Below are positions 1 to 43,321 of a stretch of DNA of 60,000 nt, in pieces. The DNA is from Botryllus schlosseri (lineage: Eukaryota). The stretch is from positions 6,636,001 through 6,696,000 of the forward strand of contig CM119372.1 in assembly GCA_051294905.1 (NCBI GenBank), read 5' to 3'. The stretch's first letter is position 1. Every line of letters begins with the position of its first letter. Both the position numbers and the translations under genes were made by a program. Under the pieces are notes generated by a model. The model saw only the letters and a list, made by a program, of their open reading frames with translations. It made no database searches and had not been told where the DNA came from.

Positions 1-415
1 AAAAGCGATGAGGCATATCGGAATCGCAACGCAGCAAGAGGGAATCAAAATGGTAGGAATGCATCTTGCCGTTATGTATAAACCGGAAATGCTTTCAAAT
101 AACTTGGTTCCTTTGCAGCATTTCTATCAAACACAAATCAGGATCGGCTATATCGATTGAGGAGGTATTCCGAGGGTACCGCAACGAGTCTGGACTCAAT
201 CAACAGAGACAGCGTTGCAGCCGATCGTTTAAGACAATCACTTACTGGGTAAGTTTTCGCCAAAGGGAGCATTTTTCAGCTTCTTCCGAATCACCACAGC
301 GAATCAGCTTTCCCCGCAATCATTTGGCAGAAGATGGTCTTCCACACGCAACCCTTCCTATTTACCCGGGCTTGAAACCGGCACTGGTTTTAGTGACCAA
401 CGAATGGATTCTTGA
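1..415 (+). CDS. 5'-partial glucagon/secretin/PACAP-superfamily peptide precursor (gene A); exons <1-52, 119-248, 331-415; ...KSDEAYRNRNAARGNQNAFLSNTNQDRLYRLRR|YSEGTATSLDSINRDSVAADRLRQSLT|GRWSSTRNPSYLPGLETGTGFSDQRMDS*
   Basis: Splice sites AATG|GTAGGA (52/53), CTTTGCAG|CA (118/119), GG|GTAAGT (248/249) and TTTGGCAG|A (330/331) give consistent phases (1, then 2). A furin-type RLRR site precedes a 27-aa peptide (166-246) beginning YSEGTxTS and followed by G-R (amidation/monobasic site). The last acceptor is the least certain. Confidence 0.8.
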
Positions 416-472
416 GGGAAGGCCATCGGGATGTAAGACCTCTGATTTGCTGAACCACAGATGTAACCATTA

Positions 473-993
473 AAGGGGTAGGGCACTCTAAAAATGATGT
501 GGTCTCAAATTGAAGAGCAAAACGAAAAAGAATTTGGCCGCAGCCGTTTTCTTCAGAACGCCACCATAATGGAACTGCAATTTATTAAAATTTCCACAGC
601 AACTTCACGCTATAGCAGTCACGCAGAGATCAAACTTTATATATTTGTCAGCCGATGTTATGAAGCAAATATGTCGTACACGCGCTATTTCCCAAAGAAA
701 TAGAATGCACTAGGCCCGATTTTGACATAAATCTCCTGACTCAACATCTTCCGTTGAACGCGGTATCTAAACCACCTTGGCGTGTACGACATATTTCCTT
801 CATAACATCGGCTGACAACTATATAAAGTTCGATCTCTGCGTGACTGCTGGAGCGTGAAGTTGCTGTGGAAATTTCAATAAATTCCAGCTCCATTACGGT
901 GGCGTTCTGAAGAAAATGGCTGCATCCAAAAACGAAAATTTCGTTTCGCCCTTCAATTTGAGACCACATCATTTTTAGAGTGCAGTGCCCCTT
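473..993. mobile_element. Palindromic MITE with ~200-bp inverted arms
   Basis: GCACTCTAAAAATGATGTGGTCTCAAATTGAAG... (483 onward) is mirrored by ...CTTCAATTTGAGACCACATCATTTTTAGAGTGC (ending 983). This explains the two near-identical opposite-strand ORFs 494-703 and 685-972. Confidence 0.9.
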
Positions 994-3900
994 AGCTTTA
1001 GTTTTAGGTAGTATTTAATAAATGACTACTACCTATATCAAAATGTTCAATGCATTCTAAATGGGGTTGGGGTGCTAGGTGATATGTTCGAGGTGTGAAA
1101 TCCAACTAACATGAGATTTTCCTGAACCGAAACAAATGGCCATGATAAACCTACTATTCTACTCCCGCTAAATGTGATTCAAATGTACCGATGGGCGATG
1201 GTATCGCTACTAATACAGCATTTCAAATTGAATTACCTTTTTTACAGACCAGCCACAGGCGGCTTGATCGATAAGCAATGTCTCATGGAATATCTTCCTA
1301 CAATTGTCTCCGACTACACGTTTAATTATGCAATTTCGATATGTACACTTTGAGTAATCACATTCCCGAATATCAGCATTCATACACTGCCGCCTATATA
1401 CTGTGTCGTTTATAATTTATTTATCTGCATACTTCAAATATATTTGTCTACGTGATCAACAAGACTGATCAATGTTCAATGCTCATCGTAGATAAGGCCG
1501 TTTCCTTCGTGATCAAAATCACGAAATTTTATATCGCGGGCAATCCGGTATACAATGGTTTAGAAATGGGCACACGTATGGTTTGATATAGGCAATCACC
1601 AGAAAACGTTCCTATGATATCAGTTTGAGTATCTTGCCACGACGCCAGGCGACAGAGGGCAAAACACGGAATGCGATTAGAAAGTGTCGAAATATAGTGC
1701 CCGAGACATCACAAGATATATTGACGTACCTACAAACAAATTCCTCGCTGTTCAATGTCACAACTTTTACCAAAATATAAATACAAGAGAACAGTGAACA
1801 TGAATACACATGGCACATATGTACGAATGATACATTTGAACCCGTATCCACCATGCAGGATGCAGCACTACTATGGCGCACAAAAGCATCCATGAATTTT
1901 ACTTTGACTAGAGTCTATTGTTTGAGATTTGTCATCATAATAATACTGATTTGGATGCTATATTTTACCTAATATTTCAATACTGATAATTCTAACTGGC
2001 GTATATGTATCGCATATGCTATCATATACATATACATCTCCGAATGAAAGGCATTCTGTTGAGTTCGTGATGGTTCATCCATTCATCAGACGCTCGTTCC
2101 GAAAATGGTTAGGGAAAACTCGCAAGACTTGTAACTTAATAGCCCGCGTTTCTCAGCCGACGGGATCAACATGATAAAAAAATAGTCTACCCATTTCATT
2201 TCTCGATTTGAAGGAAGTTGTATTGTAATTTGATGTGAGAAGGTTTTTGTCAGTCACAAACTTACGCACAAGAACACAGCATTTTCAAGAAGCTTACCAC
2301 ATTAAAATTTGACTTGGATGAGTAACCTGCGCAAGTTCACAATGGACATACAAACGATGTTTCTTAGTATATATAAGGCTCACAAGCAACGATAAAATAT
2401 GATGTATGCAGCGATTTCACCAAGATGACGTTGGCTTATTTGTCAGTAAGTGCGAATGTTGCGACATTTCACTCCGAATTCACTTTATACCGCCCGGCCT
2501 GGACCATAGGCCTACACTAGAAAAAGTGAAACATTGTCACCATACGTCAGCATCGCACACCACAGAACAAAAAGTTAAAACACGGACACAAAAGGTTGTT
2601 AAAATCGCATCGAAATAAAAATGACGGCTGAATTTTGTGAAGTGGCGGGGAAGAGATTTTTCACAGTCATTGTCGTAGTTTTCGCTACGAAACATATGCG
2701 ATGAATACAACACTTCGTTATTACTTATATACCATGAAGAATTCAAAGGAAATAAAACCCCCATTGATCCTCACTGCCTTTTCGTTGGTAATTAATGTAA
2801 AAGCAATATCACGTGACACGTAGCCCCTCATAAAGAGTTGATGATGGAAATATACGTACGCCTATTGGAGGATTAGGAATCGTTCATATCACTGTGATCA
2901 ATTGTCAATTCGATTACTATGACCGCATGTAGATTTATCAGCAAAGGAGTTTAAAATCAATATACTGAAAATTGAAGCAGATGTTTGCAATTGTCCACAG
3001 ATTATAAGTATAAATCGTTAATGCAACACAACGATTTACTGTAGCAACCCTGCTCTTTCTGGGTGTAATGTCAAGCTAATTCGATTTGTAAACTACCGGG
3101 AGAAATCATGAACCACCAAAACTTTGAACGACGCCAGCATGGCTCCCTGCATGGACGTTGGACAAATATTACGCCATAGTGGCGAAAGGTTATTACACAA
3201 TTTCGGTAAACACAACCCCGTATGGCAAGCCCCTTGAAGAAAACTGGCGTGTACTCGGCCGGACCTATAGTCGATCCTGTGTTCCTGGCATATGATGCAA
3301 TCCTAATTTCGAATTACATTGGAAATGATGAGTCTATAGAGTGTCTGTATATTGAAAACAGTTTAACATCGTGTCACATCTTCGTCGGCTTTATCTGCAC
3401 GTGTTAAAGAGGAGTTGGTTACGCTAATTCGACCCACGCGATGGAAACACCATGAAATTCACGCAAGGTCATTCTAATTATAGTATATGAAATAAAACAT
3501 TCATTGTAAAATTTACGATCTCCACCAGCACCAGAGCTAGAACAACGGAATTCAGTTAAAAATATTTTCTCGAAGAGAAATATATATACAATTCGTTGCT
3601 AACAAATGACAACAAAACGGCTCTAAAAACACGCCCTCTGGAATCAACGCGTGGACGTGTTACTATATAGATTCTCGATGTAAGGTGAAATGGCGTTAAA
3701 GAGGCGGTAACATGTATAGATATTATTTGGCAGCAACATGTTGTTACTTGTGCTTTTCCATGTCACTGAAAGGGGCGAAAAGTTTTCAAATATACATATT
3801 GCTATGCAATTACGTATTTATTATTTACCGAAGAAATGATATTAGACGTGATTAGAATATTAGAGTATAAACTGTATATTCTTGATCCATTTTATTTATT

Positions 3901-13678: not shown

Positions 13679-13704
13679 GTGTGCAATGTGCATTGCTGTA
13701 TGTC

Positions 13705-16742: not shown

Positions 16743-16905
16743 ATGTAGCAGTAGCCAACACCCCAATCGCACGGATTTGGTTTTTATGATACAATAAACA
16801 TGAAATCAAGATTGACCCCGTACGCCAGCTACATTGTTTTACATTAGACAACGATATCAATTTCATTGATTGGTTGAATAAGCATCATTCGCTAACTACC
16901 TATAT

Positions 16906-19252: not shown

Positions 19253-20181
19253 CAGACTTGGACAACTAGATAATTCTAGTTATCTAATTTCACTAAATTA
19301 GAGCAAAATGCCAGTAATCTAATTCTAATCTAATTTGTGAAATGCTTCCATGCTCTAATTCTAATTCTAATCTAATTTGTGAAATGTTCTTACGCTCTAA
19401 TTCTAATTCTAATCTAATTTGTGAAATGTCCGTATTTTCTAATTCTAGTTCTAATCTAATTATTGTTTTCCTGAAAATGCCTCTTTGTCCGAGGCATACT
19501 GCACTATTGCAGTGAGTTAAAAAGAATATCCCGCTTGCTCAGGGAAATCCAGTGCCAAGCCGCCATCGCCTTACTTATACCGTGCAGTCATAGTAGATAT
19601 TATGACGAATATAGCCTGCTAGAGTAGCTTGTCTGCGAACAACACTCTAGTTTCTAAAACTTTACGTTAGTACATCGCCATGCTGACTAACATGGGCGAT
19701 GCCCACGGTTACCATAAAAGAAGTAATATTTTATTAAAGTATAGTAAAAATCGAGCCAAGCTTGGTGTACAGAAGTTAACCATTCTCATGTGTATGGGAA
19801 TGCACTGTTGTTGATGTTTATTAAACAAAAATATGTGGCGCTTATCACCTCACGGCCTTTTGCACCACGCACTGTGATTTGATGTGAACTGCATTTTGCT
19901 GTATTCATTTACCATATACAATTTCATTCAATTTCCAAGTTTTTGCGAACCAAGTATAGCTCTAATTCTAATTCTAATCTAATCTGGAAAAAACTTAGTA
20001 GTTCGAATTCTAATTCTAATCTAATTTGAAAAAAGCTGTGTAGCTCTAATTCTAATCTAATTTGGAAAAACTGTGCAGCTCTAATTCTAATTCTAATCTT
20101 GCTTGAAAAAAACTGTGGAGCTCTAATTCTAATTCTAATCTAATTCAGAAAAGCTGAAAATTTTCTAGTTGTCCAAGTCTG
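19253..20181. mobile_element. hAT-type MITE with CTAATTCTAAT subterminal tandem repeats
   Basis: TIRs CAGACTTGGACAACTAGA/TCTAGTTGTCCAAGTCTG; TSD ACTCCAAG; arrays of CTCTAATTCTAATTCTAATCTAATT near both ends. Confidence 0.9.
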
Positions 20182-23177: not shown

Positions 23178-24889
23178 CTCTACAGGCTGAACTCGTCCAT
23201 AGATTAGATTAGATCCATAGATAGTATTTATTCCATATTGCCATAATTTGTATTCAATTCAACTCGTGAATTGCATGTTGTGTACATTGTACAAAGGTGC
23301 CACGAGTCATGTTCCTACATCAAACCGAAGAACCTGCATGTCGATGAAACAACGTTATTTCACGAGTAATATCGAAAGAATATCCGTAGTTAACTGCTAT
23401 ACAAACGTGTATTACAAGGGTTATCCAATCTGCAATGAGGCGTGTGAATAATTGCACCCTACTTGCCGTGCTACAAGTCGGTAGATCAGGAATAACAGGA
23501 ATACGAATCGCGGTTTCGTTTCAATGATCATGACCATGACAGTCGAAAAACACCACGAATATCGAAACAACAACAACAACAACCCCTGTATGATGATAAT
23601 TTTACGATTTACTGTGGTACTCCAAATCTATAACGGTCATTTCGTTCTTAGGTCAAAGATAGTCGCTTTTACTAAGTGTTCCAACACGGTACTCTATTAT
23701 CTTGAACAAAAAAGGCGAAGAATGAGCCTTTCTCCGCCGGACGTGAAAGCAAATTTGGGAGACGAATAGGTTTATAAATATTGGAGATTACCTTGATTAC
23801 AGCTGAAGTTCTTAGGTATTTAAGATCAGATAAATCATGCATGAAGATGGCAGATGATATGCAATTCTTAACCGATCTGTTCTGTTAAGTATATTCCGAT
23901 CATTGAATTTCAGCACCGCACCACAACGATTTGAGTGATTTATTGACATACAAAACCTTAACGACAGATGCTGCAAGATCATATCTATAGGTGCAAGGAA
24001 TTTTCTTCCATGCTGCATTCAACACTTTGTCTCGCGTAATGATGGTCCGATCTAGTTCGTAAGGTAATACAATCATTGTATATTATTTAGCAGCATCGCC
24101 GTTAATATATACAATATGCACACGAACATTGAAATATATCGTAGATTTTTCTTATTTCTGACGTATATCTTTGTCTATTAACACTTGACAGGCTGTTCGG
24201 GTCCAATTTTGCCGATTGCAGACATGGGGGAGTTACTGAGGACGTCAATGTTATGACGACAACTTTTGTTCTTGCGCCACCATCGGATGCCTCGTCATAT
24301 ATGGAATCGATGATGGATTACTAGTACATCAAAAGTATTTCATATAGGCCGTGATGATACCTGACACTATCGGATATGGGAGTGGTATGACGCCACCTTA
24401 TAATTACCATAATATTTCGCAATGATACTGGAATGACGTCCTTCAATTCACGCGTAGGATTCACGTCATTGGACGAGACGACTTCGAATGCGTATAGTAA
24501 AAAACTGAACCAAATGCATTCAAAAATATATTTAATATAACTGCTCTGTGAAGGACAGTGAAATGAAATCTTGCATATATTATTACACAATAATATGTTA
24601 TAAAAAGTTATTATCACATCTAATATCGTAGATTCCATGGGCTTGTCGACGAATAGATTTCTGATTCGCTCCATGGAAGGAATCGACTTATATACCGTTT
24701 TAACAAGTTGAGCAGGAACCATCATGCATTATCAGATGGTAGGTGAAGTTGTCGGCTTTGTTACTCAAGTAGAAGTATCTCCGTATGTGCATACTTTATT
24801 ACAAGTAGAAGTGGCGATTTCGAAGACATGCCAAAACTACCTCCAGTGGAAGTGAAAAATCAGGGTCTTAAATGTACTCAAGTACTATC

Positions 24890-25168
24890 GTCGTGGCGAG
24901 ATAGCGCAGTGGTATAATCCGCGGCTGCAACACCAATGGGTGCGGGTTCGAGTCCGACCGAGGTCGACTTCCGAATTCCGATACCTAAGTGTTGGACGTT
25001 TACCTAGGCTCCTCCTCGCCACATCATCCGCGTCAGCGGTGTCTTACAAAAGCCTAGAGGTGGGCCGTGCTATAAGTCGGCAGTTGCGGAAAATAAAAAG
25101 AATATCGGCCTGGTGTAAATGACCATAGTAGTCGACAAACACCATGAATACCACAAACCAACCAACCA
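24890..25168 (+). mobile_element. Full-length tRNA-derived SINE (tRNA-Cys-like head)
   Basis: GTGGCGAGATAGCGCAGTGGTA (A box), CTGCAAC loop (GCA), GGGTTCGAGTCC (B box), (AACC)n tail; 14-bp TSD ACTCAAGTACTATC (24876-24889, 25169-25182). Confidence 0.88.
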
Positions 25169-25915: not shown

Positions 25916-28158
25916 ATGAGAGGTGTTGCGGTGATAGGTCTTTTCGCTCTTGTTGCAGTAATCGTGCTTCAGATCGATGGTTCGCCAATATCAAGGTAAG
26001 GTGTCTTTTACATCTTTTGAGTTTGCGTTTGTGATCTGTTAGTACCTATATAGTAATGGCGTATCCTTATTGTAAATTCGCCTCTTACACGATTGCCACT
26101 ATTAGGGTAATACAGTCATCGTTGTTCCATTCTGAAAATCTGCAGTCAACTAGTGTCACGTCTTGTCGGAACTCATGATATCGGATCAATTGTTATAGAC
26201 GCGTCGCTGACACGAATCATCACACATCTCACTTCAATTTGAAACAAATATTGTCATTAAACGGGAGAGTGTATTAATGCACTTTATTTTGTTTTGAAAA
26301 GATAAGTATATCCGTACTGATGACAAGGTATTAAATAGAATTGATAAAAGACTGATCAAGGTCGGGGCGACGTGTACCTCATTACAGTACGACCCGACAT
26401 GGCTTGGTATAAATATACTAAACTGGTACACAACGCCAATAGCATCATCTGTTATAAGGGCGTGAATGTTTACAAGCGGGCGTTCTTTGAATATAATAAA
26501 AGGGCTTGAGGGGTTAGAATCGAAACGGGCCGTAGTAAAGTACCGATGACCTGAAATCGAGAATAGAGCCATTGTAACAAGACCTCCTAGGTCGCGGTTG
26601 TCGTCTCTGAATGTAAACGTGTGTGGTGTTTTATTACAGAGGGCGTGGTAATGCGACAAGCAACCACCGACGTGTCAGTTACAGAAGGGCGAGGGCCAAC
26701 CTTGTTCGGCTGCTGGAATTAAAACGGAAACCACACGTCACGAGGAATTTGCGCAGGGGTGCTCTGGAGAGAAGCAGACGCACTTCCACTCCCGGTATTA
26801 TGAGTCATTTAGTGGGGGAAGTGAGAGGTCGGAAAGCTGCGAAACAGACATTAGCGAGGTGAGGATACAAGAATAAGCTGGGGATGGGATGGCGCGAACC
26901 TGAAAGGTTCTGGTTCGCTTAAACACGAACTGTGCGAAGTGTGACCTATGAAAAAGAGGTTAATTCTAATCAAATCTACATACAATTGCTATATGTTTGA
27001 TTATTTAGCTTGACACAGATCTTAAATTTCTGCCCCCTTAATTTAGAACTCTCTTTAAAGTTTGGTGCGATATTAGTACCAGGAAAGCATTTATTTCCAA
27101 TCCCCTGTCCGTATCAAATACTGTCGAATTAGTAGTCATTAATAAGACATCAGTGTATACTAGTTGCAATTCATGAGATGTCAATCATAACGACGTGACT
27201 TAAACGTTGGTAAAATTCTTTTGGATCCAAGATCTCTTTACGCCCTTAAGGGACCCACTTTTTCACCCAATATTGTAGGGATGCTCGGGAAATTCTCGGA
27301 TACCAGGAACAATTTTGCAATACGTACCAAACATACGTTCCTTGTCACATCAGACATAGATAACTCTGTGACCACACGGGAATATAGGCCAATTATATAG
27401 CAGCGATGGAAGCGAATAATTTTATTATCAACAACTAAAACAGAGTGATATGTCATTCAAACTCCTCAAAAATCAGTATATTTTATGACATCACAAGGTT
27501 CCTCTTAGTTTTCTGTTGAATTTTCTTTCATGCTTCCATTGTGATGCAACCAATGATTAAAGTTGAAATGTAAGGAATCTTGATCACAGATGATAAGATT
27601 ATTGGGAAAAATTAGTATTTCAGAACAATGCTCACAGTGTAGTTTGTAGTGTAGAACCTACTAAAGCTCAATTGCGAAAGTCTGAATCATCGGGGTTCGC
27701 ATATCGCACCCTGATGTTGACACTACCGCAGTTATTATCAGTTTTGTCTTGCTTTAACAATAACAATAATGCGATTTGCCGTAGAAAGCCAACGGGTTAT
27801 ATCGCTACATAATCACCTCATAATATCATATGCATCCAAAAACTACAAAGTGTAAGCAATTAGATGTAGCTTTTTATAGATATCATCAAATAAAATCAAC
27901 CCAAGTTGTCTGACAGTGTGATTGCCCCAATCTAAGTAGAACATCCGTCACATTAGAGGCTCCACTCAACTGATTATAAGATAGCCTACTCTCGTTATAT
28001 TTCCTTAATCACAATAACATTATATATTTAGACTCCGACAGAGCCGCAAACAAGGGAATTTAGGGTCTCTTGCTGAGCACTGCACCCGAATGACTGACGG
28101 AGAAGCAATGATACGATGTTTGACTGAGATGGTGCAGTCGCGGAGTTCGAGCCCATGA
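25916..28158 (+). CDS. Secreted peptide-hormone precursor (gene B), 141 aa; exons 25916-25995, 26640-26858, 28032-28158; MRGVAVIGLFALVAVIVLQIDGSPISRGRGNATSNHRRVSYRRARANLVRLLELKRKPHVTRNLRRGALERSRR|TSTPGIMSHLVGEVRGRKAAKQTLARLRQS|RKQGNLGSLAEHCTRMTDGEAMIRCLTEMVQSRSSSP*
   Basis: Classical signal peptide. Strong splice sites AG|GTAAGG, TTTTATTACAG|A, AG|GTGAGG and ATTTAG|A, all phase 2. RSRR furin site. Same coding-exon layout as gene C. AATAAA at 28463-28468. Confidence 0.78.
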
Positions 28159-29368
28159 AGATCGATTTGTGACGGGAACATAAATTGAGAGGCAAAGAAA
28201 TAGTCAGAAGCTACAATTCTGGCTCTAAGACAACTCGCGCCGTTGTCTTACATGAGTCAGATACTGCGTATCATAAAAAGACGTTTCCTTTCTCGCGTGA
28301 TACTGCGCGGTAGCTTGAAGTTTCATAATAATATCTAATTTATTTCATTTTATATTTATTTAATATTTATATTTGTGGCGTATTTCAATGCAATAATAAT
28401 GTATAATAGTGCTTTACAATGATTGCGACCGAGTCTTTATGCTGCATTGAAGTTACTTTGCTAATAAATGACCGTTCTGATTGATTAAATTCAGATAAGA
28501 GCGATACGGAAACTGCTCGATAACGAATAGTTACCAATAGCAATGCTCGAATTGCAGGAGCACCATAATATTACAGATATATTGCAATCAAAGGGAGGAC
28601 CACATAACGATTGGCACCCAATTTTTACTCTACATCCGCATGTGAAATATAGTATATAAATAGTACGTATGCTATATGCAGTAGCCTATATAAATATATA
28701 AAGTAACGAAACCGCCGTGGTTCGTAAGACGGGGTTCCATCATAACATCGTCTGAAAACTGTCCAATAATCATTATTATATGTCTTGATAGCTTCGAGAT
28801 AATACACCAGTGAAGTCGATGCGACCCGGAAAGTTTGCGAAATGCCAAGAAGAAATGATCGTGAATGAAATGAAAATTCCAATAACACGCAGTAATATCA
28901 GATTAAACATTTGCCATCGTACGGCTATTTCTAAGCGATAAATAAATCCAATTTGAGTAGACCTTCGTATGTCTGAAAATACATTGTCGATGTACAGCGT
29001 ACAGAGATATAAAGATATACCTAGCTGTGATGTTATAATATGAATGTATATGTGGGAATTATTAACAGGAGATTCAGAAGAGATACACATTTTCAGTTCT
29101 ACAGATAACATCGCTCAAGTGGCATCAAAATACCGGCTTGTATATATTATTTTACATACATCACGACTGTTGATTTCGAAACTAAAGATCACTATTTTCG
29201 TATCAACCAGTGATACGTAGGCCTACCCAACTCCATACGGGTTTGTTTATACGAGTCTCCCAATTATACGTTTTCTCGAAGATGAGTTGTATCTCATGGT
29301 AAAGTTGTCTTAATACGACAGTTTTATATTGGAGAATGGGAGTGTGATCATTCCATGTGAACAAGCAG

Positions 29369-29717: not shown

Positions 29718-29921
29718 TCAAAAGGGAACAGCTGATGGGATATTTTCTTGGCAGATGCAACCTCTGCTCATACGTTAGCGACTTCTAGCGATCAAGTTGT
29801 GATGATGTGTTGATGCTGGTTTGCGTTGCAAAAATGACCGCACGATGGCGGTAATAAGTGACTGCTGAATCATTTCATGTGAACATCCAATGTAACTCCG
29901 TAGAGCCCGGAGTCTGTACGT

Positions 29922-30331
29922 CAGAGATGAGCATGGATTAGGATTAGGTTTTGAAAAAACAGGATTTGTGAAATTTTGTCGGATTTGGATTAGACATTTT
30001 TTTCAGAACGGATTAGGATTTGGATTGGATTGAACTATTTTCTGGGAGATTGAAATGTCGTGTGGCGAATGGCGACAAACTTTATTCAGATCAGTTATTA
30101 ATGTACTTATGGTTACTAAGTTATCTTGAATCAAGTGAATCGTTGGTTGTGAAAGAAAATTTTCGAATCCCTCCATTGCATAATTAAATATTTTTTCTGA
30201 ATTTCCAGTTGGAATCGGATTAGGATTGGACATGGACTTGAATATGAAAAAGTTATGGATTAGGATTTGGATTTGGAGGTTCGGATTTGGATTGGATTAG
30301 GACATAGAAATTTCAAATCCGCTCATCTCTG
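29922..30331. mobile_element. hAT-type MITE with GGATT(A/T) subterminal repeats
   Basis: TIRs CAGAGATGAGC/GCTCATCTCTG; TSD CTGTACGT; GGATTA/GGATTT arrays. Confidence 0.88.
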
Positions 30332-30486
30332 CTGTACGTACGTGCCAGGACATCATGGGGACTGTACACGATTGAATGTATAACACACATTATGGATGGA
30401 TATAGTTAAAAGAGTGCGAAAGGGGTTATTAATGGTTTGAAAGTATGTCCTGACTTCTTGCTGTGCAATATGGAGAACGTAACGGG

Positions 30487-30672
30487 CAATGTTCCCTTCA
30501 AGCTGCGCAAATGCGCAGTGCTGCCACGGTCTCTGTGCACAGAAAATATAAGTTGCGCACAGGAAATCCGACGTGCTCACCTTTTTTTTAGTCATTACGC
30601 ACTGTTTTCCATGGGTCTGCGCAGTGAGTTGGTGAGTGTGCGCAGACTTGGCAAAAATTAGAGGGAACATTG
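30487..30672. mobile_element. Short MITE
   Basis: TIRs CAATGTTCCCT/AGGGAACATTG; TSD GTAACGGG. Confidence 0.88.
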
Positions 30673-31189
30673 GTAACGGGTAGCCTATAATTCAAACGTA
30701 AGTGACGTCTATTGACTGTCATGCTACATGAGAGCTATACAGGCAGTGCCGACGTCACACTTGTGCAGAGGAAAATAATGTTTGAGCGAGTAGAAGTTGT
30801 TTACCAAATTCCGTCGATATTCCGGAATAAACGGAATCCGGTAAGAGTAAAGGATTAGTATTGAACAAGAAGTGAAATATTTGACACCTTGAAAATTTTA
30901 TCTAAGGGTCGCTAGCGCTATTTACATTTTCTGGGTCAAATCAAGAAATTTGAAGGCAGTGACTATAGAGTCGTCTCCCAATACGGAGTCGAACACCATC
31001 TTCTCTTGCCCTCTGCAAGCTATGTAGACCAGTGCTTCCCAACCGTGAGGTCGCGAATAAATAACAAATGTTACGGCTTTTTATTCAATTTGCCAAAGAT
31101 GTCAACCACCTATATCTTCTCACGATCAGACGGGAAACTACCCGTTCACCTCTATATGCAGTTGGATTTGCGCCCATAGATGCCGTAAG

Positions 31190-32346
31190 TAGGGATAGTG
31201 CGAACCTCTAAAAGGTTCAGGTTCGTCTGAACGGTGAACGAGAACGTTTTTGAAAGGCTCTGTGTGAACGCGAACGTGAACCTCATAACGTCACGTGACG
31301 CCATATTGCTGATTACAGCCCTACATTTCAGGGAAGTGAAAGCTTATATTATTGACCACATAATGCCACAATGCTGAAGTACATATTGACGTTTTAAACG
31401 ACGCCAAATGTATCAACTGGGGCAATCATACCATATCATAATCCCATAAAATCAATATCTTTCGTCGCTTTGCCAACAATTTCGACGAGGACTTGCAAGA
31501 AAATATACGCCTCAACGGTCTAGGTCAGACCGTACAACGTATTCGGCGTCTGAGTATTGCTATTGCTTGATATTGCTTGATATTGAGCGGAGTGTAAAAC
31601 GGATTTTGTACTTGTACCGATATTACCTCATTAAAAATTGATGCAGCAGTAGCCAACACCCCAATCGCACGGATTTTTTTAAAGATACTATAAACATATG
31701 AAATCAAGATTGACCCGATACGCCTACTAGATTTTTACATTAGACAACGACATCAATTTCATTGATTGGTTGAATAGCATCATTCGCCAACTACCTATAC
31801 ATCCTATTATTATTATTATTAATTGTGAAAATGAGACATTGTGGCGCTTATCACCTTATCGGTCTGGTGCGCCACGGCAAAAAATTTCGTATTACATGTC
31901 GCAAATCGTTTACCTAAAAAATATTGCTTAAATCAACACATTGCTGGCCAGGACACCTGTACATCCTACATATAGTGTATTTCGCTCTTGATGTTGTGTG
32001 ATTGCGGGTCAAACTCATAGCAGAGAGTCACTAAATATTCACAAACGGAAAGCTGGATATTTCGAACAAACTTATGTAACAAAGCAAGTAAAATATTTGA
32101 CATTGGCGGGTGCATGCCCGCTTGGTGATGTTTAGTTTTATGCTGCCAGCGCCATGCGTAGAATGGTGCGAAGTTGAAATGCAAAGAATTTCAACCAAAG
32201 ATGTTATAATGACGTGAAAAATGGTAATATATGAAAAAGTTTCACAGTGCAGAACCTACTTAGGTTCGTTCGTGAACGTGAACCTCTAAATTTCTGAGGT
32301 TCACACACAGAACGCGAACGTTAACCTCACGTTCACACCATCCCTA
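31190..32346. mobile_element. Largely uninterrupted copy of the TAGGGATGGTGTGAA family
   Basis: TIRs TAGGGATAGTGCGAAC/GTTCACACCATCCCTA; TSD GCCGTAAG; homologous to 14327-17595. Confidence 0.9.
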
Positions 32347-32627
32347 GCCGTAAGCCACGATTCCGCGCTCACAATATTTCGTGAGCTGGATTTTTGTGAC
32401 AGTCATTCTAATCGGAGCTCGAAATTGGACACAGCGTTTTGTGTATTCCTTAAAATTGGAAATCATTCATTCGTTCCTCCAAAGGATTTGCGAACGTTGA
32501 TTGTAAAATGCAATCCAGCCTAGTTATTGTCAGCAAAAATTTGCGGCGATGAAGCTATACTGTGTTCGACGTAAAAGACTAATTACTGCTTGAAAACGTG
32601 CCTTCTCGTTTGTAATCATCTTATTAC

Positions 32628-33506
32628 TAGGGCGATTTTTTTTACCTAAAAAACGGAAGATTTTGACCTAAAAAATCAGATTTTGCAATTTTTTTACTTT
32701 AAAAATTAAAACTTTGACCAAATTTCACCTAGCATATGCAAATTATGTGTATCCCACATAATGTTAGAATTGTACTACTTATCTTCATCTCTGGTTGGAA
32801 CTGTCTGTCCTTGCGAAGTAGTTTGGCCTGAAAAAAACGTTTGTGCCTCAAAAACTGACAAATTGTTACATGAAAATACTTCATTTTAACAGAATCTGAC
32901 CCTTATGAAGATTTCCAGTAGTTACATAACGCATTATGGTAGAAATAATTAAAAATTTTAGTAGTACAACAAAAGATGCTTTCCAACTATCTCGGGTAGA
33001 AAGTGTCTGTCCTTACTAAGTAGCTTGCCAAGAATGGAGAAAGAACGTTGAACAGCAACAGTTGTTGGCTGACAACACTGAAGTTGTGTGTACACTGCTA
33101 GTGACAAACCGTGTTGCTTCATTCTGTCAACGGTTTCTACATCACAATTTTTCATCATGCGCTTCTTGATTAAGAACCATACAATGCCCACGCAGTCTTG
33201 CTTCAGTTGGGCTATTGCGGTACGCTGAGCATAACACAATGTCAACCTATTTGTTTCATTTGAATGTTTATGATTCAGTATGAGCGGACAATGGGCCGTC
33301 TACGACGGTATACGCTTATTAAGTAGGCTACAAGCTGTAAAATGTCAAATGATAAGTTCACCGACAGTGCAAAATCTACGATACAAACGAAATGCAGGTT
33401 GCAAAAAAGTTTTAACTTTGTTAAAAATTTCGACATTTTTTGACGTAACGGTACAATTTTGACTTAATTTTGACTTTTTATGACATGTTAAAAAAATATC
33501 GCCGTG
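32628..33506 (-). mobile_element. Internally deleted hAT transposon carrying a transposase C-terminal fragment
   Basis: Ends TAGGGCGATTTTTTT/AAAAATATCGCCGTG; TSD CTTATTAC. ORF 32958-33245(-) ends QPTTVAVQRSFSILGKLLSKDRHFL, resembling the hAT dimerization motif (P-S-x-x-x-E-R-x-F-S). Confidence 0.85.
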
Positions 33507-33800
33507 CTTATTACGTCCTACTTACACTTGTGGGCGTGTAATTTAACTTGTTAGTCATACGACACATTATAAGTCAAATCATATTCTCATTCGTTAGGTC
33601 ATATCTCATGGTGGGTCGCACAATGAAACATTGCATCAATAGTGGGTCACGAACTGAAAAGGTTGGGAAGCACTGATGTAGACTGTAGCACCTTCAAGAA
33701 TCCGTATACAGAGGCATCGAGCCGTATGGCGTAATGCAGAGATGACAAACATACTAACGAGTGGTTCAATGGTCGCAACAGCTCGTCCGTCCACTTCTAC

Positions 33801-35299
33801 CAGGGGTGGGCAACCTGCGGCCGTAGAAGGAAATTTGTGCGGCCGTGACACGTAATTTAATTAGTATGTGTTGGCGGCCGTCAACGGGCAAATTGAAATT
33901 TTGATTAATTGAATTTTAAATAATCTTGAAATTTTCTTCGCGCTGCGCGCGATTTAATGCTATGCTTCATAGTAGTGCCCTTTGCAATCTGAGCCCCACA
34001 GTACAGACGCGAGCAGCAGATAAAAATGATGCACCCCATATAGAAATACCAACTTGGTATAGTGTGCTTCTCACGAAAGAAATTTGTTTCTGATACGTTT
34101 AGGCCAGTGATTCCCAACCGTCGCTCTCAGAGTCGCATGCGGCTCCAAGAAAGCCTTTCTTGCTGCTCTGATTGACCTCTATAGGCTACGCCACAAAAAT
34201 ATAATAGAGGACGGTTGTTGTTTGTTTCTATGCATAGCTATACGCAATTTCTATATATTAATGCTAAAATGGGGGACATTAGTTATGTCTAAAGCCGTCC
34301 AAGGCCGCTTCTGAAAATTGGGAAAGAGAATTCTTGCAGACTGGCGTCAAACGCATGGATGAATATCCGTCAGACAACGATGTATCTTGAGTTCTGCTGG
34401 TCATAGACCTTTTCATAACGTCTTTGTGAGGAGTAAATTTCGACACAATTTCACTAACATCAAAGTAAAGTCTCATAGACAAGTATAAATTGCAATAAAT
34501 CCAACATTGCTCAGCGTATAATTCCCCGCAAACTTGTGCATATAGTGCAGGAATGTATGAAAGCTATCACATCACGACATTATAGTACTCGCCAATTTGC
34601 TTGTATCAATGCTATAATAACCGATAGAAGTCCATGTGCAATATGTGCATGCTTTTGAATTAGCTGGATGGTGAGAGCAGAGGTATAGGCTAGCTACCTT
34701 TAAATTTTCGTTATAAGTAGCTTATACTTGAGTGTTTTCATGTGGCTCCATTCGTACTCTGAAGTTTGAAATGTGGTCCCGACACCCAAAAAGTTTAAGA
34801 ACCACTGATTCAGGCGATTCCAATATATTTCCGCTAAGCCTACCGACAATACTGATGGAAGGACAGGAAATAAAGGCATGCAACAAAGTGACCAATAACA
34901 ACTGCCCGAAATTTCGGAAGACACTATACCTCTATCAACTCCACCATAGTGGATTTGATCACATGGGCTGATGCAGGATAAATATTTGATTGCAATATGT
35001 GAGTATACTAATAATGATGACGAAATTTAATTGTGAATCTGAAAACATTTTCGCGCTTCGCGCGACCATCATTTTCACGGTGATTGTTCAAAACATGGCC
35101 ACTCGCGATTTCGGTATGTATAGTAAGCCAATATGAGAAATTAGATAAGTCTGGAGTTCAACTGAAATCGATATGGACGGAATAACATGGGTATTTGACG
35201 CCCAGTTAGTTGATTACGGCTTAATCACAGGAATGCGGCCGTGGGCTACATAAGTAATCGAAATGCGGCCGTGAATAGCAAAAAGGTTGCCCACCCCTG
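33801..35299. mobile_element. hAT-type element with nested element ~34105-34807
   Basis: TIRs CAGGGGTGGGCAACCT/AGGTTGCCCACCCCTG; TSD ACTTCTAC; GCGGCCGT subterminal motifs. Confidence 0.88.
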
Positions 35300-35370
35300 A
35301 CTTCTACAGAGACAAATACCCAACACGGTGAAACTTATAAATGTGTTCGCAGCAACAACCAACTAACGGA

Positions 35371-35525
35371 GACCAGGCGGAGCATGGAGAGGAGGTCGCG
35401 TATTGCTGAGCGTCGGCGCCATCCAAGCAGACGACCCGGGTTCGATTCCCGCCGTCGGAGGTTATTCTGGGTTTCCCGCCCCCAGTGTCGTTGTTCTTAC
35501 GACGACAATAAAGCCCTAGAAAAAG
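35371..35525 (+). mobile_element. tRNA-derived SINE-like element (second family)
   Basis: B-box-containing T-arm GACCCGGGTTCGATTCCCG (~35433-35450), a GC-rich body and an A-rich 3' region; no complete cloverleaf. Confidence 0.55.
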
Positions 35526-37868: not shown

Positions 37869-39614
37869 CAGGGGTTCTCAACTTCCCTTGTGTAACGGGC
37901 CGCATTTTAACAGCAAAAGACGCTGCGGGCCGCAGAACAATATATTGCCATGTATTTGTGGGCTACAATTTAATTTAGGCTACTGTAACCTATTTACCAC
38001 TTGCATACGGGCATTTAGTACACTTTTATGTATTAGAAAGCATCAATGGACAACGTCCGTAAGTTTGCAGCTGCTGCTTATTGTGAGAATGTATCTTCTG
38101 GCGGCGAAAGTAAATCCCTTCATGGAGCGTGCAAATGCATTCATTGCCAAGTCGGTATATGCAACTTAAAACCCTTCCACCAGAGAACCGAACTCGCTGT
38201 TTCAATGCTGGAGCGAGCAATTATAAAATTACGGTAACTTTTGCGTTACAGAGGCCATTATCACACTGAGCTCCGAGTGATATGAGAGGAAGTCTGGCGT
38301 TCGGGGCCATTTTTGAGAAAACCAATCAACCAATCTCCTTTCCTTCGATGCCTGGGGCCCTGCATCCACAGTTACAGAAGTTAGCTTTGTCAAATTGATA
38401 TTTTTCGCTGGCCCCACGTTTTCCCAGCCAGCATTTCCTCTGCATATATGCCCGCTCTGATAAAATTCAACCAGATAATTAGTTATGCAATGTTGGTGGA
38501 TTTGTCCGAGGTTGGGTTAAAGCAGTCTCCGCGGCAACGTGTTTCAGAACATGCGACCGACTGACATTGATGTTAATCCTCATGACACGATTGAATCAGA
38601 CGACTGTATCTTCGAAATTTGTCAGATGATAGTGTCCTTGCTGCTACGTTCCGAAAACAGCAAATATTTGCACAGTATGTTAAGGTCTTATTGAAATTGC
38701 ACCTTCTGCAGCAGATTTCTTGGATTTAGCGATATTCCAAGTAATTTTGAACGATGTGCCTGTAACGTCGTCGGCAATCTAAACAACCGTTCGCAGTGAG
38801 TCAAACACTCTTAAAAAGTGCAGGCCTACTATACGTAACGGGATTGTCTTGAACCAGAGTCCTGTAGAAAACCGATTCAAAACAATAATAATCTGAAGTC
38901 GAGCATATATCAAGAAACGGGAGCACATTAAAGCAGTGTTGTTGTTGCTGTGTTATTCATGGTGTTTGTCGACTACTATGGTCATTTACACCAGGCCGAT
39001 ATTCTTCATACTTATTCCGTAACAGCCGACTTTTAGCACAGCCCACTTCTAGGCTTCTTGTAAGACACCGTTTGCGCGGATTAGGTGGCGAGGAGGAGCC
39101 TAGATAAACCCCCAACGCTTAGGTGTTGGAGCACTGGTTCTCAAACTTTTTCAGACACACCTCCTTTTTTGATAGAGAATAATTTCGTGCCGCCTTATCG
39201 TCATATAACAAAATGCAACCAGAATGCTACAAACGGCTAGTTTGCTGGCATGGAAGGTTATGACTGTTGATGAGAGAATGCTCAAATATGAAATTCGGAC
39301 TATATACACAAAGAAACAACTATGAATTTACGATATATTGCGCGCAGTGCAATTTTTTTTTTCAGTTGACCGCAGCGTTGCGCCCCCTTCAGATGCTTTC
39401 ACGCTCCCAAGGGGCGCGCCCCCCAGTTTGAGAACCACTGCATTCATGAATGAGTAATCAAACGAAACAGAGACGGTACGATAAAAGAGCTAAGTATCTA
39501 AACTACTTTGTTACAATACCGTGTCAGCAATAATTGCGTTTATAGTGAAAGATGTCGCGGGCCGCAAAATAAGCGTCTTCGGGCCGCATGCGACCCGCGG
39601 GTTGAGAACCCCTG
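37869..39614. mobile_element. hAT-type element containing a partial SINE (38938-39131, -) and a MITE (39132-39440)
   Basis: TIRs CAGGGGTTCTCAAC/GTTGAGAACCCCTG; TSD CTCTATAG. 38938-39131 is the reverse complement of the 3' part of SINE 24890-25168. Confidence 0.88.
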
Positions 39615-39659
39615 CTCTATAGTATAACTGATCGAGGAAAAATCGTACAAGTGAAATTG

Positions 39660-41713
39660 CAATGTAAAAAATCTGGTAGATTAACTTGGAAATCTCTGTA
39701 AATTTTACAACGAATTACCAGTCGCAGCCAATAACTGTGCGTGGCTTGTAATTATACATTTTGATATGTAGTATTACCTTAGTTTAGCTGTGAAGTCAAG
39801 TTACCAGAATTTCGTCGCAAAATTACTGACAGTTACTCGTAACTGCAGTTTACCAGGCCATTGAAAAGATTGATTAGCTTAATAATCGCTGCAGCCAATA
39901 TATACGTGGAACTGAATGTTACTGAGATATCATTCTTGTGGTGATTTGACCTGATTCAACCTCGTTCGTGAAGCTGGGGTGTGTCGCACGGAAATTGTTG
40001 GCCCTAATAGTACCAATTCCAGTATAGTACATAGTAGGGTTCAAGAAACAACTGACAATCGTAGCAAATGTGGTTACACCATAGCAATTATATTATATTA
40101 TAAAGCTATATGGCTATACGGCCGTTCTCGCTGGTTACATTCGTTGTTACGGATAGGGCTGATAAGTTAGGAAATCAGTTTAGGTTGTTAATTATTGTTC
40201 GGGGAAATATAGACATGGCGGACAAGGCGACCTGTAACACCCGTTAGTCCGTTACTGGTTTTCTGAGATTCGTAGTAAACAACCAACGCGCAACTGTGAC
40301 ATCACAAGCATCGTCTCGTTAAGTAAGTACAGTAAGTAGTGAACAACACTTGGGATAAATATCAATTTATACGAAATTAGATGGAAAAGAAAGGGACTAT
40401 ATGTAATGGTGAATGTTTCGGTATGAAAAAGAAATGACCTAAGTCAAACATTATAACGTGGTCAGTAAATATTATTTGTGGCATGTCAGCGGATGAATAC
40501 CACTACTTTCGAAATCGTTCGAGTGTCGTATCGTGATCGTCGTCTGGCCATTATTGAGTTGAGAAAGGGTGGAGCGAAGTTTGTTGTGCTTGAAGAAAGT
40601 GGACACGATCGTGGAAGATTCCTAGGAACGCTAAATGGGATACGCATCGTACAAGATACAGTAGGCTACTGCATAGTATTTGTTACCGTGAATATCTGCG
40701 ACTGTGCAGTGTGCACACCACTTTGATTTCATGACTGAAATATTTCATTCGCCGCATTCTCTGTTCTATTTTGGGATATTAGTCGACTTATATAGTGACC
40801 TGTGACACCACATACTCCGCCGCGGAGGAGTTGAAACTGTTGGCTTGATTATGTCATTTTAGGGCCATAGCATAGAGATGTTTTCATCCACTGCTGGATT
40901 TGTTTGGCACACATGCCGCCTCAATGAGGAACCTTTTGCTTCAGTACATTAGATAAAGTTAGTACCTAATGAATCTCTGCTATATCATGTACAAGGCGGA
41001 GCCTTCATCACACAACGTACCAGTACCGGTACTTCAAAACATGTTGTATTTTTGTTAGCCCATTTGTCTCAAGTCTTTATAATGTCATGGCTAGGTTAGG
41101 AACTTTGCTTTATATAGCGACTTACTCATGAATTCTTTTTAGTGGAACTGCAAGATACTAGTTACACAAGGAATGAGGACGAAAAAAAGAAACAATTGGA
41201 AGTTTGGCCGGTGGTGGAATTAATTCACCTTTTCGTGAGACCACTCGTGTTACTGCATGTCTCATAAAGAAGAATTAGACCTCCAGTAGCAATACTTTCC
41301 CATCGATAACCACTTCATCGTGATATCATGAATGAATATACAGTTTGTTCCAATGTCGTTTTGGGAATGTGAAGAAATTTTTTTGATATTTTAGCATCGG
41401 GTTGCTTTGCGATAGGTATGGATGTACGTGAATTTACAAGCTGGTATGTAATCCTGATTTACAGGGACAGCATGTAGGTAGGTAGGCGGTAAAATGACAG
41501 TATCGGTCGCAAATGTACAGGAGAATATGTAGATTGGATATACCGGAGGTAACTGTAACATTACAATCTGGCGTGTAAAGTGAGATTACTGGACGAGTGT
41601 AAGTTAAATTTACATCGACTAACGGTAATGTCACATTACCACGAAATGTCTGGCACTGGCTACCGTGCTTCCAAACATTTCGCGGTAAATCGAGGTTTTT
41701 ATTTTTTACAGTG
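39660..41713. mobile_element. ~2-kb non-autonomous CACTG-ended (EnSpm/CACTA-like) element, copy 1
   Basis: Ends CAATGTAAAAAAT/ATTTTTTACAGTG; collinear over its whole length with 51905-53947; no transposase ORF. Confidence 0.85.
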
Positions 41714-42311
41714 ATGGGGGAGAATTCAGACTCACACTTATCACTTCTCATGGCGGCAAGAAAACCATGTTCTATTGTTCATCGAGTAGTTCAGAGGTCG
41801 GCACCCTTTCGAATGCCGCGTGCCAAATATTAGAAAACACGAACAACTCCCGTATCGAAGATTTACTTATGTATTTCGAATTTATTCACATCTAAAACCA
41901 TATCATGTAGCATATATATTCTCGAGAGGGTCTTGAATAATTTACGGCTATACCTACGATAGTCTTCAGTTATATATCTAAAGTGTTTATTGTCATTGTT
42001 TGCATCGCAGTCTCTTTTACCCCCCACACCCACACACACCCTACATCCGGTAAGTGGCTCACTTACACAGTTCGGAACCTAGTGTACAGGTCATGTGAAA
42101 TTTGATGGAGGATGGTGGAGGAGTGGAGACTGAAAAATATCGAGTGTAACTTCGGCAATTTCCACAGAAATTTTAGGGTGTTGACCACACGTTTATATTT
42201 TGTCATGTTTATTGTTGTTGGGGTATGACAAAATGTCCGTTTTCTTCCTTACACGGCACTTTGGTAGGGAGAAAATCACGGCCACGAGAGAAGATATAAG
42301 AGGTTCGGCAC

Positions 42312-42475
42312 TATATATAATGCTCCAAATTATTCGTCGGTCAATTAGATATACTTTGCCAACTAGTGTAAGCAACGGCCAGAAATCGAACTCCGATTTC
42401 TTGTAGTAACATAATCACAAAAGCAAAACATTAAAAGAGTTTCATCAGGAAACCAAGAAGAAAAGTTTACGAAAG
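42312..42475 (+). promoter_or_regulatory. Candidate TATA box and non-coding first exon of gene C
   Basis: TATATATAA at 42312-42320; donor GAAAG|GTATGA at 42475/42476; acceptor TTTTTTTACCAG|A at 42749/42750, upstream of the ATG. Confidence 0.55.
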
Positions 42476-42775
42476 GTATGACAGAAAAGTTTTACTTGTA
42501 ATTAATATCTGGCATTTTGGGATGACTCAAGAATTTTTTCTTCTTTCAACAACTCTCTAGTCTAGTGTATATAAGGAGTAACTATTGTATCATAAATGCA
42601 GTTCGGGAATCGCAGTGCCTGTTTCCAACAGCACTAAAATGTATGGATTTCGTATTTACCGAATGACCCCAGTCACACTATAGTTGTAGCGGTACATGCT
42701 TTAGTACATTTATGCAATTATCGATAGCAAGTGCTCATTTTTTTACCAGATACATAAGAAATCATATTAAAAAGA

Positions 42776-43321
42776 ATGAAAACCTACATCACACTAATCG
42801 CAACCATTATTCTTGTCTGCGCATTGGACTCGTGTCTATCGAATCCATCCAGAAGGTAAGTGAACCATCGAGTGATTTTATAAAAGTGCATATCAAATAT
42901 TTTTATATTTTTTGAGCAGAATAGAAAGGAATGAAAATCGCATTCCAGCTGGTGCTGACTCGGAACGGGATCCAAGTCTCCGACGATCGCGCCGTCACGC
43001 AGATGGAATGTTCAGCCACGTTCGCGGGAACGCGCAAGAGACCAAATCAGTACATAGATTCCATCAAGTTATGAGCCCAAGGTATAGAATCATCGAATAT
43101 ATTCTTCTCCCTTCTGGGAGCAGATTTAAATTGGTACATGCTATCCTAATCTGCAACCGCTATTTTCTATATACAGGAAGCGAAAAAGCATTGCTACGTA
43201 CCCGCCAGTTTTACGAGACTGTATTGCGAAGAAATGCAAAAAGAGCAAGAGACACATAACGAACCGCAAAATAAAATTGTGGGCGTCCAAATGTCTCAAA
43301 TACCTTATCCGCCATTCATGA
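42776..43321 (+). CDS. Glucagon/PACAP/GHRH-superfamily peptide precursor (gene C), 128 aa; exons 42776-42855, 42920-43081, 43177-43321; MKTYITLIATIILVCALDSCLSNPSRRIERNENRIPAGADSERDPSLRRSRR|HADGMFSHVRGNAQETKSVHRFHQVMSP|RKRKSIATYPPVLRDCIAKKCKKSKRHITNRKIKLWASKCLKYLIRHS*
   Basis: Signal peptide; phase-2 introns (AG|GTAAGT...GAGCAG|A and AG|GTATAG...TATACAG|G). RRSRR precedes HADGMF, the hallmark H-x-D-G-x-F N-terminus. Splicing creates an RKRK site directly after the 28-aa peptide (42996-43079). Confidence 0.85.

Follow-up and report, generated by a model that had tools for sequence, protein, structure and literature searches.

Three prohormone-type peptide genes clustered in the genome of the ascidian Botryllus schlosseri, and their possible kinship with the secretin/glucagon superfamily

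In this report, we describe three small genes that lie on the same strand, spread over 43 kb of the genome of the ascidian Botryllus schlosseri, and we weigh their possible kinship with the secretin/glucagon superfamily of peptide hormones. The window, that is, the whole stretch of 60,000 nucleotides that was analysed, corresponds to positions 6636001-6696000 of contig C2 (CM119372.1) in an assembly of 495.5 Mb and 219 contigs; it has about 40% G+C and carries intron-containing genes. The original prediction, made from this DNA, placed in it a tandem cluster of three divergent precursor genes for peptide ligands of class B1 GPCRs (G protein-coupled receptors), termed here A, B and C. The three peptides that it named are indeed encoded on the + strand (Table 1), each immediately behind an R-x-R-R cleavage site (RLRR in A, RSRR in both B and C), and each peptide exon is closed by a phase-2 GT donor. 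The signal-peptide exons claimed for B and C are present as well, with a coding part of 80 nt in each, and gene A, to which none had been given, likewise has one of 98 nt, just 5' of the window. Joined by script after reading of the DNA, the exons give three complete spliced models with canonical GT-AG introns and intact frames, for precursors of 146 residues in A (with the candidate last exon at 1248), 141 in B and 128 in C. In each of the three genes, the first exon specifies a hydrophobic core that counts 14-16 uncharged residues and closes in phase 2 within an Arg codon, and the mature peptides of the three genes are about 25-28 residues long. A basic site had also been proposed behind each peptide: it is found in C, where RKRK spans a junction seen in RNA, and in the model of B (RLRQS-RK), whereas that of A was not confirmed.

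Table 1. Exons and peptides of genes A, B and C, in coordinates of the window unless a contig is given, and the probable fourth locus of the family
Feature	Position	Strand	Content
Gene A exon 1	118-215 bases 5' of the window	+	Signal peptide MAKLSLGSTVNIATIGILVFYLSTAES.., 98 nt
Gene A exon 2, 3' part	1..52	+	Pro-region; the exon starts 55 bases 5' of the window
Gene A exon 3	119..248	+	End of pro-region, RLRR, peptide A, Gly split by phase-2 donor GG/GTAAGT
Peptide A	166..246	+	27 residues, YSEGTATSLDSINRDSVAADRLRQSLT
Gene A candidate last exon (a)	1248..1353	+	G-PATGGLIDKQC...ICTL-stop; no basic site 3' of the peptide
Gene A candidate last exon (b)	2090..2174	+	G-RSFRKWLGKTRKTC...-stop; G-R-S-F-R-K
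Gene B exon 1	25916..25995	+	Signal peptide MRGVAVIGLFALVAVIVLQIDGSPIS, 80 nt, phase-2 end in Arg codon
Gene B exon 2	26640..26858	+	Basic pro-region, RSRR, residues 1-25 of peptide B (from 26782)
Gene B last exon, coding	28032..28158	+	R-LRQS-RK-QGNLGSLAEHC..C..-stop; transcript contig continues to 28324
Gene C non-coding exon 1	42354..42475	+	GT..AG joint 42475/42750 in X1 and X5
Gene C start-codon exon	42750..42855	+	ATG at 42776; signal peptide MKTYITLIATIILVCALDSCLSNPS; coding part 80 nt, phase-2 end in Arg codon
Gene C peptide exon	42920..43081	+	Pro-region, RRSRR, peptide C, phase-2 donor
Peptide C	42996..43079	+	28 residues, HADGMFSHVRGNAQETKSVHRFHQVMSP, then RKRK across the intron
Gene C last exon	43177..43790	+	RKRK, cationic tail with three Cys (SIATYPPVLRDCIAKKCKK...), stop 43319-43321, 3' untranslated region
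Fourth family locus (probable)	C6:18428500-18434820		Signal open reading frame, then exon KR-HADGMFSCMHCKQIK...

Gene C is a real gene, transcribed and spliced exactly as modelled. Four sequencing runs from four studies (X1, X5, X10 and X23, the last as raw RNA-seq) were aligned to the part of the window between 24500 and 44400, and all four carry its two coding junctions. The first of these, 42855/42920, is crossed by contigs at depths of 78.8 (X1), 12 (X5) and 4.21 (X10) and by one raw read of X23; the second, 43081/43177, is crossed by contigs at depths of 115.9 (X1), 12 (X5) and 13 (X10) and by six raw X23 reads with two different starts. The contigs of gene C end at 43648-43790, and the transcript extends to about 43790. 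More broadly, the gene C stretch is partly present in 20 of the 24 sequencing runs listed (7 studies); none of these is entered as an RNA run, yet those aligned do contain spliced contigs. The splice junctions predicted from the DNA were thus confirmed for gene C, while for gene B the coverage is thin and the junction had to be deduced. Indeed, gene B is nearly silent in the four runs, with a handful of X23 reads and a single X1 contig of 330 letters at depth 5.74, which lies at 28030-28324 and has 34 letters over. The X1 depth in the bin 26492-27155, which contains the end of exon 2, is 0.29, that is, 34 x 5.74 / 664, and this arithmetic of the leftover letters, together with the start of the contig, fits a junction 26858/28032, for which the data give no junction row. 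Two low-depth X10 contigs also fall, at 27037-27432, within intron 2 of gene B and may stem from unspliced RNA, from another transcript or from DNA carry-over.

In gene A, the two introns upstream of the peptide exon are of 63 and 66 nt, both GT-AG, with an open frame and agreeing phases. Its last exon has two candidates, both phase-compatible with the donor, and the sequence alone favours neither. The one at 1248 has a strong acceptor (ccttttttacag) and encodes two Cys, and it ranks 139th of 300 by likeness to the tails of B and C; the one at 2090 ranks 33rd of 300 by the same measure and would give the 'GR' that the original prediction placed behind peptide A, and with it an amidated peptide. 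By eye, an element resembling a miniature inverted-repeat transposable element, with long terminal inverted repeats, can be seen at about 470-1000 of the window, within the last intron of this gene.

The relatedness of the three genes is supported by their sequences and by their exon plan. Across its six frames, the window contains the pattern R-x-[KR]-R-[HY]-[SA]-[DE]-G two times, in A and in C, where 200 shuffled windows have it 0.015 times on average, and it does not occur in 122 kb of other DNA from the study. In global alignments compared with 2000 shuffles, A and C are similar (z 3.65, p 0.001), and so are B and C (z 3.57, p 0.0025), while A and B alone give no significant score (z 1.23). 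MAFFT aligns the L-x-R-x-R-R site of the three, together with the Gly at position 4 of the peptide. Taken with the common exon plan, these scores support the view that A, B and C are paralogous genes for small secreted precursors of prohormone type, in which C is the link between the other two. The tails behind the peptides contain Cys pairs in all three genes and are not alike in charge or in Cys spacing. In local scans with hidden Markov models (HMMs), the 120 kb that surround the cluster yielded no other member of the family, and searches of the same genome with the exons of C and B returned only these exons themselves, plus weak matches at E 4-5. A candidate located 36 kb upstream of the cluster, on the other strand, was rejected, as it has neither the cleavage site nor the motif.

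The local cluster of three related prohormone-type genes thus stands, on the common exon plan and on the similarity of C to A and to B, but it does not make up the whole family. The whole genome was scanned by IUPAC pattern for H-[AS]-[DE]-G-x-F-[ST] behind a basic pair, and there are two matches in 495 Mb, namely gene C and a site on contig C6 (C6:18434719); the reversed control pattern in the same scan also gave two matches. The C6 site encodes K-R-H-A-D-G-M-F-S by the same 20 nt as gene C, with no similarity beyond, and its peptide diverges 3' of HADGMFS (CMHCKQIK...). The exon that plausibly contains it has the acceptor ttgtag, in phase 1 as in the third exon of gene A, and an F-L motif opens both of these exons. 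On the same strand, about 6.2 kb upstream of the site, there is an open reading frame (ORF) for a signal peptide (MYRVQYVGFALLALAVLLSTVSDTMLPYR), and the end of this signal exon, LLSTVSDTMLPYR, resembles that of gene A, YLSTAESRILPYR (in a signal exon that reads ...FYLSTAESRILPYR). A signal exon like that of A combined with a peptide start like that of C places the locus within this family of at least three genes, of which it is probably the fourth member; it may, however, be a decaying copy. A local HMM scan of 22 kb around the locus added only the signal exon to the pattern site, and the A-type peptide start has no second copy genome-wide. It is hardly credible that what we describe here amounts to chance open frames or dead genes. 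The C6 locus and gene A are known here from the DNA and B is barely covered, which would allow such an idea; for C, it is refuted by splicing as predicted in four of four runs, and for the three models taken together it is opposed by intact frames, canonical splice sites, signal peptides and a pattern count far above that of the shuffled windows.

The case for the secretin/glucagon superfamily begins at the N-terminus of the peptides. Like the vertebrate members, genes A and C encode a peptide of 27-28 residues that starts with H/Y-[SA]-[DE]-G at a convertase site, one per exon, with, in C, a basic site behind. Peptide C starts with HADGMF directly after its cleavage site, in agreement with H/Y-[SA]-[DEQ]-G-x-F, and it also agrees with the family in its length (28 residues, for a range of about 27-44) and in its flanking basic sites, with RRSRR before and RKRK after it and with junctions seen in RNA. 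Peptide B agrees in length and flanking basic sites by its model, and the genes share the one peptide per exon of the family. Several residues of the superfamily are kept further along the peptides, namely F6, F22 and Q24 in C, and T5, T7, S8, S11, A19, Q24 and L26 in A.

As a standard for these comparisons, we took the consensus given in section 8 of PMC2880984, which names 15 positions for GCG-like and 7 for PACAP-like peptides. Peptide A, with the named variants, matches 8 of the 15 GCG-like positions, a count that is reached by none of 5000 shuffles of its own sequence and by none of 61 background peptides taken after R-x-R-R; counted strictly, it matches 6 of 15 (p 0.0004). At positions 7-27, outside the part on which the earlier selection was made, it matches 4 of 10 (p 0.013), and 5 of 13 for the union (p 0.0036). 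Peptide C matches 5 of the 15 GCG-like positions strictly (p 0.001) and 3 of the 7 PACAP-like ones (p 0.003), and peptide B matches 2-4 of the 15. A profile built from the three mature peptides was also run against 177,635 PDB chain sequences and gave three matches, two of which are single stretches aligned residue 1 to residue 1: SAR425899 (8jir_P, E 0.14), a glucagon/GLP-1 agonist, and non-acylated tirzepatide (7vbi_P, E 1.2). A longer profile matches SAR425899 alone, at E 0.81. The third match of the first profile is a repeat protein, made of three stretches of 4.7 bits, and it was set aside. For the exon of C, AlphaFold2 gave a helix over residues 10-26 of the peptide, with a mean predicted local distance difference test (pLDDT) score of only 56.2, which is not usable. 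The N-terminal motif, the consensus positions of A, the non-significant profile matches and a weak docking pass that we detail below suggest that A and C belong to the secretin/glucagon superfamily, and make of this membership a good lead that falls short of a finding.

The class assignment of the original prediction is favoured by the motif of A and C and by the consensus positions of A, and it is weakened by the HMM results, by the lack of relatives and by the misfit of B. Indeed, a series of observations weighs against it. Peptide A starts with YSEGTA and has no F6, a residue that passages of PMC2880984 list as core; peptide B starts with TSTPGIM, so that an offset of one residue is needed to align it, and it has no H1, D3 or F6. 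In peptide C, the matches fall almost entirely in residues 1-6, with only 1 of 10 at positions 7-27 (p 0.62), and residues 1-6 are precisely the part of the peptides on which the earlier selection was made. The ascidian peptides differ from the vertebrate superfamily in that W25-L26, S8-D9 and Y10 are missing and no clear amphipathic helix is found: the hydrophobic moment from residue 6 to the end does not rise above that of shuffles for any of the three (fractions 0.375, 0.788 and 0.205). The precursors differ too, each carrying a single peptide followed by a Cys-containing tail, and we know of no counterpart of such Cys-bearing tails in vertebrate precursors. In addition, gene A may have no C-terminal cleavage site, and the donor after LPYR at the C6 locus is degraded in comparison with that of gene A.

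The searches of protein collections weigh in the same direction. Neither Hormone_2 nor Parathyroid, the two families by which the assignment was to be checked, nor any other Pfam family matched the three peptide exons or the three tails at E values up to 10; this is a weak negative, given that the peptides are short and that the filters of HMMER drop most weak matches. Single peptides run by phmmer against PDB sequences gave no match at E up to 10 for any of the three, and the two peptide matches of the profile, besides being non-significant, are both engineered analogues. An exhaustive HMMER search with the profile of the three paralogues against 1.84 billion protein representatives returned no hormone precursor. 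Its three matches are artefacts whose scores sum many weak stretches, and they correspond to two tandem-repeat ORFs and to one P450-like protein with a repeated RRLQRHADGTAF. Word-based homology searches with C and A found no relative, and the best scores in a language-model atlas, 0.85 and 0.76, are within the range of chance. None of the protein collections that were searched contains a member of the family. The comparison between family members covers a single species, a limit that weakens the class B1 interpretation more than any other point.

These results leave room for a different account, that of a lineage-specific ascidian secreted family which shares no descent with the secretin superfamily. 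The H/Y-x-D/E-G start would then be convergent or coincidental, and the products would act on other receptors, or as whole disulfide-bonded proteins of 60-75 residues. It is favoured by the failure of every HMM or sequence search to tie the peptides to a known family, by B and its missing motif, by A and its missing F6, by the lack of an amphipathic helix signal and by the Cys pairs in all tails, to which the doubtful C-terminal cleavage of A may be added; moreover, as the peptides were chosen for their motif, the similarity is partly one of selection. Against it, two or three paralogues with little else in common carry the motif exactly where the convertase site creates a new N-terminus, peptide A keeps consensus positions beyond the motif, unrelated control peptides of 30 residues docked far less well than peptide C, and the genome contains orphan receptors of the matching class. 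On balance, we find a lineage-specific family rather doubtful, though by no means far-fetched.

The tails and charges bear on another account, in which the genes would encode secreted host-defence or other non-hormonal peptides, with, for instance, the cationic C-terminal part of precursor C as the active product. Ascidians are a source of gene-encoded antimicrobial peptides; precursor C has a strongly cationic tail (SKRHITNRKIKLWASKCLKYLIRHS) with basic sites on its flanks, and peptide B has a net charge of +3 in its first 25 residues. Peptide A, however, has a net charge of -1 and peptide C of +1, the tails differ among the genes in charge and Cys spacing, and what C shares with the C6 locus is the HADGMFS start and not the tail, so that we consider a defence function improbable.

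If A and C are ligands of class B1 receptors, suitable partners are encoded in the same genome. At least ten exons for HRM ectodomains are found in it, alongside 7tm_2 exons, and the class B1 receptor loci include three tandem genes at 5.33-5.66 Mb of C6, a cluster of at least three genes at 9.56-9.72 Mb of C3, and single genes on C12, C13, C14 and C15, which makes about ten receptor genes with an HRM domain in total. The classing of each cluster is that of one exon: the TM2-TM3 exon of the C6 cluster matches best the secretin receptor (50.9 bits), followed by PAC1, PTH1R, VPAC and GLP-1R, and the exon of the C3 cluster matches best PTH2R (70.9 bits) and then PTH1R (66 bits). Among database proteins, the C6 exon is closest to Styela clava and Ciona intestinalis entries that bear the name glucagon-like peptide 1 receptor.

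The presence of the C3 cluster raises the question of PTH/PTHrP/TIP39-type ligands. A PTH precursor has a short pro-piece that ends in basic residues, an active N-terminus and a longer C-terminal part, a plan that these precursors call to mind. PTH, PTHrP and TIP39 are ligands of the same class B1 type, with an active N-terminal part behind a basic pro-piece, and the genome holds at least three tandem PTH-receptor-like genes, a type of receptor whose tunicate ligands are undescribed. The Pfam family Parathyroid did not match, however, the only peptides matched by the profile are of incretin type, and the HADGMF and YSEGT starts are those of the secretin/glucagon type in the consensus that passages of PMC2880984 provide. 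Ligands of PTH type thus seem very improbable to us.

Docking was carried out with the closest complete ascidian receptor of GLP-1R-like type (residues 82-510) and a 30-residue translation of peptide C, in which the last residue is intronic. The score was 0.51 (runs of 0.52, 0.50 and 0.51), against 0.01 for the best of 3 controls, with a contact agreement of at least 87% between runs and a partner pLDDT of at least 61. Of 78 solved complexes, 51 reach the mark that was passed, as do 2 of 108 mismatched pairs, and scores of 0.60 or under comprise only 5 of those 78 together with all 4 mismatches that passed out of 180; the support is weak. Three further points count against a strong interpretation of this pass. 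The docked receptor comes from another ascidian and is 54-68% identical to the genes of this genome over matched exons, peptides are an untested class for the docking tool, and the solved structures include many class B1 complexes, whence the pass may reflect likeness only. What it does show, within the limits of a model, is that peptide C looks to the model like a ligand of class B1, which is no proof of binding.

Such receptors have so far had no partner in tunicates. Passages of PMC1764030 describe GCG/GLP/GIP-receptor-like genes of Ciona that are expressed in the intestine, the gonads and the neural ganglion, with ligands undescribed. According to parts of PMC7251081, PMC2880984 and PMC1764030, tunicate genomes hold receptors of the glucagon/secretin type and of the PTH type and no genome-encoded ligand of the secretin superfamily was found; the first two also mention searches of genomes and transcriptomes that gave none. 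Our own literature search likewise found no report of secretin-superfamily ligand genes from a tunicate genome. The low similarity of the present peptides to vertebrate hormones has a precedent, as amphioxus peptides with 10-17% identity to PACAP activate an amphioxus receptor, as stated in sections of PMC7251081 and PMC9049855.

The gene neighbourhood gives a further and more mixed indication. In vertebrates, the conserved neighbours of GCG include KCNH7, IFIH1 and SLC4A10, as passages of PMC2880984 report. In the present genome, all three RIG-I-type loci lie on contigs that carry peptide genes, at 8.96 and 10.26 Mb of C2 and at 18.29 Mb of C6. The C6 helicase locus is 143 kb from the fourth peptide locus, and the two on C2 are 2.3 and 3.6 Mb from the cluster. 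By our arithmetic, a given locus has a probability of about 0.002 of lying no more than 150 kb from any of three RIG-I-type loci. At C6:18290000-18292025, an apparently intron-poor, 674-residue open frame carries DEAD, RIG-I_C, Helicase_C and RIG-I_C-RD domains, by which the gene is a full RIG-I-like helicase. The proximity of this helicase to the C6 peptide locus is a real hint of old linkage, with the reservation that the helicases are assigned here to a type and not to a subtype. Other neighbours weigh against such linkage: the helicase exon on C2 matches LGP2 only, and weakly; of four SLC4-type loci, one lies on C2, at 4.75 Mb, and its exon is anion-exchanger-like and not SLC4A10-like; and there is no DPP4-type locus on C2. 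Within the window itself, on the - strand and 15 kb downstream of gene C, the exon at 58300-58578 matches ACVR1 best (52.8 bits). Judged by this match, it belongs to a TGF-beta/BMP receptor kinase of type I, with ACVR1/ALK2 as the closest, and Pfam returns nothing for the exon alone. We take human ACVR1 to lie near GCG, and GIP presumably lies near DHX58 and SLC4A1.

Taking all of this together, the account that we favour places peptides C and A within the secretin/glucagon (PACAP/GCG) superfamily, as strongly diverged members that act as class B1 ligands, together with the product of the C6 locus should that locus be alive. It is in our view a serious possibility, though we would stop just short of calling it probable. 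In the precursors, a convertase of furin type would cut after R-x-R-R and free a new N-terminus; the peptide of 28 residues from gene C would need a further cut, at RKRK, and removal of the basic residues by trimming. Under the proposal, the N-terminal H/Y-x-D/E-G segment would reach into the transmembrane core of a receptor of class B1 and activate it. The likeliest receptors would be the products of the three tandem secretin/GLP-1-receptor-like genes at 5.33-5.66 Mb of C6, a pairing that we infer, and B would be a paralogue in which the canonical start was lost. A broader version of the idea holds that the GLP-1/secretin-receptor-like GPCRs of tunicates have their natural ligands in the products of these genes, and that the genes share a chordate PACAP/GCG ancestor with the hormones of amphioxus and vertebrates. 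In ascidians, this ancestor would have given rise to several single-peptide genes with Cys tails, and the helicase linkage would be a remnant of the ancestral GCG/IFIH1 neighbourhood. We put this version forward tentatively, as possible and not as likely.

The nearest parallel is the PACAP/GCG gene of amphioxus, which is described in parts of PMC7251081 and PMC9049855 after On et al. 2015. Here too, in an invertebrate chordate, there are three peptides of about 30 residues (PACAP/GCGa, b and c) that have a marginal similarity to the vertebrate peptides and keep few of the key residues, and amphioxus, like B. schlosseri, has a matching class B1 receptor; the peptides of the two were compared by description. 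The organization differs, however. In amphioxus, according to the same sections, a single gene of four exons produces the three peptides by exon duplication and alternative splicing, and receptor activation has been shown, whereas each ascidian peptide has its own gene, signal peptide and Cys tail, in an arrangement that extends over 43 kb plus the C6 locus and is known from sequence. The present peptides are also to be distinguished from the reported tunicate PACAPs, which are claimed as members of the same superfamily. The latter were deduced from cDNA and are 85-96% identical to human PACAP; they have been found in no tunicate genome and are doubted in reviews, as passages of PMC7251081 and PMC2880984 relate. 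The peptides described here, in contrast, are very divergent and have genes in the genome, of which C is seen spliced in RNA.

Vertebrates have no closer living relatives than the tunicates, and peptides A, B and C are concrete, synthesisable candidate ligands, of which C is transcribed. They thereby make testable the existence and the form of this hormone family before the genome duplications of vertebrates. If the kinship is true, it settles whether tunicates have such hormones, a question open since the unconfirmed report of a tunicate PACAP in 1997. If instead the peptides are unrelated to the superfamily, they still represent an undescribed ascidian family of neuropeptide-like precursors.

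As for the rest of the window, scans with Rfam and for tRNA gave no match, none of its 23 long open frames reaches the Pfam cut-off, and a scan for tandem repeats found nothing relevant to the peptide genes. Arrays of a 42-base tandem repeat are found at 19318-20152, with 3.4 and 4.8 copies and a related periodicity of 36/77 bases. Finally, three intergenic stretches, at 24500-25163, 29812-34459 and 38444-41763, are covered by contigs at depths of hundreds to thousands, with many matches of 95-99% and loose ends that carry poly-A tails (for example at 41377); these are dispersed transcribed repeats, probably transposable elements.

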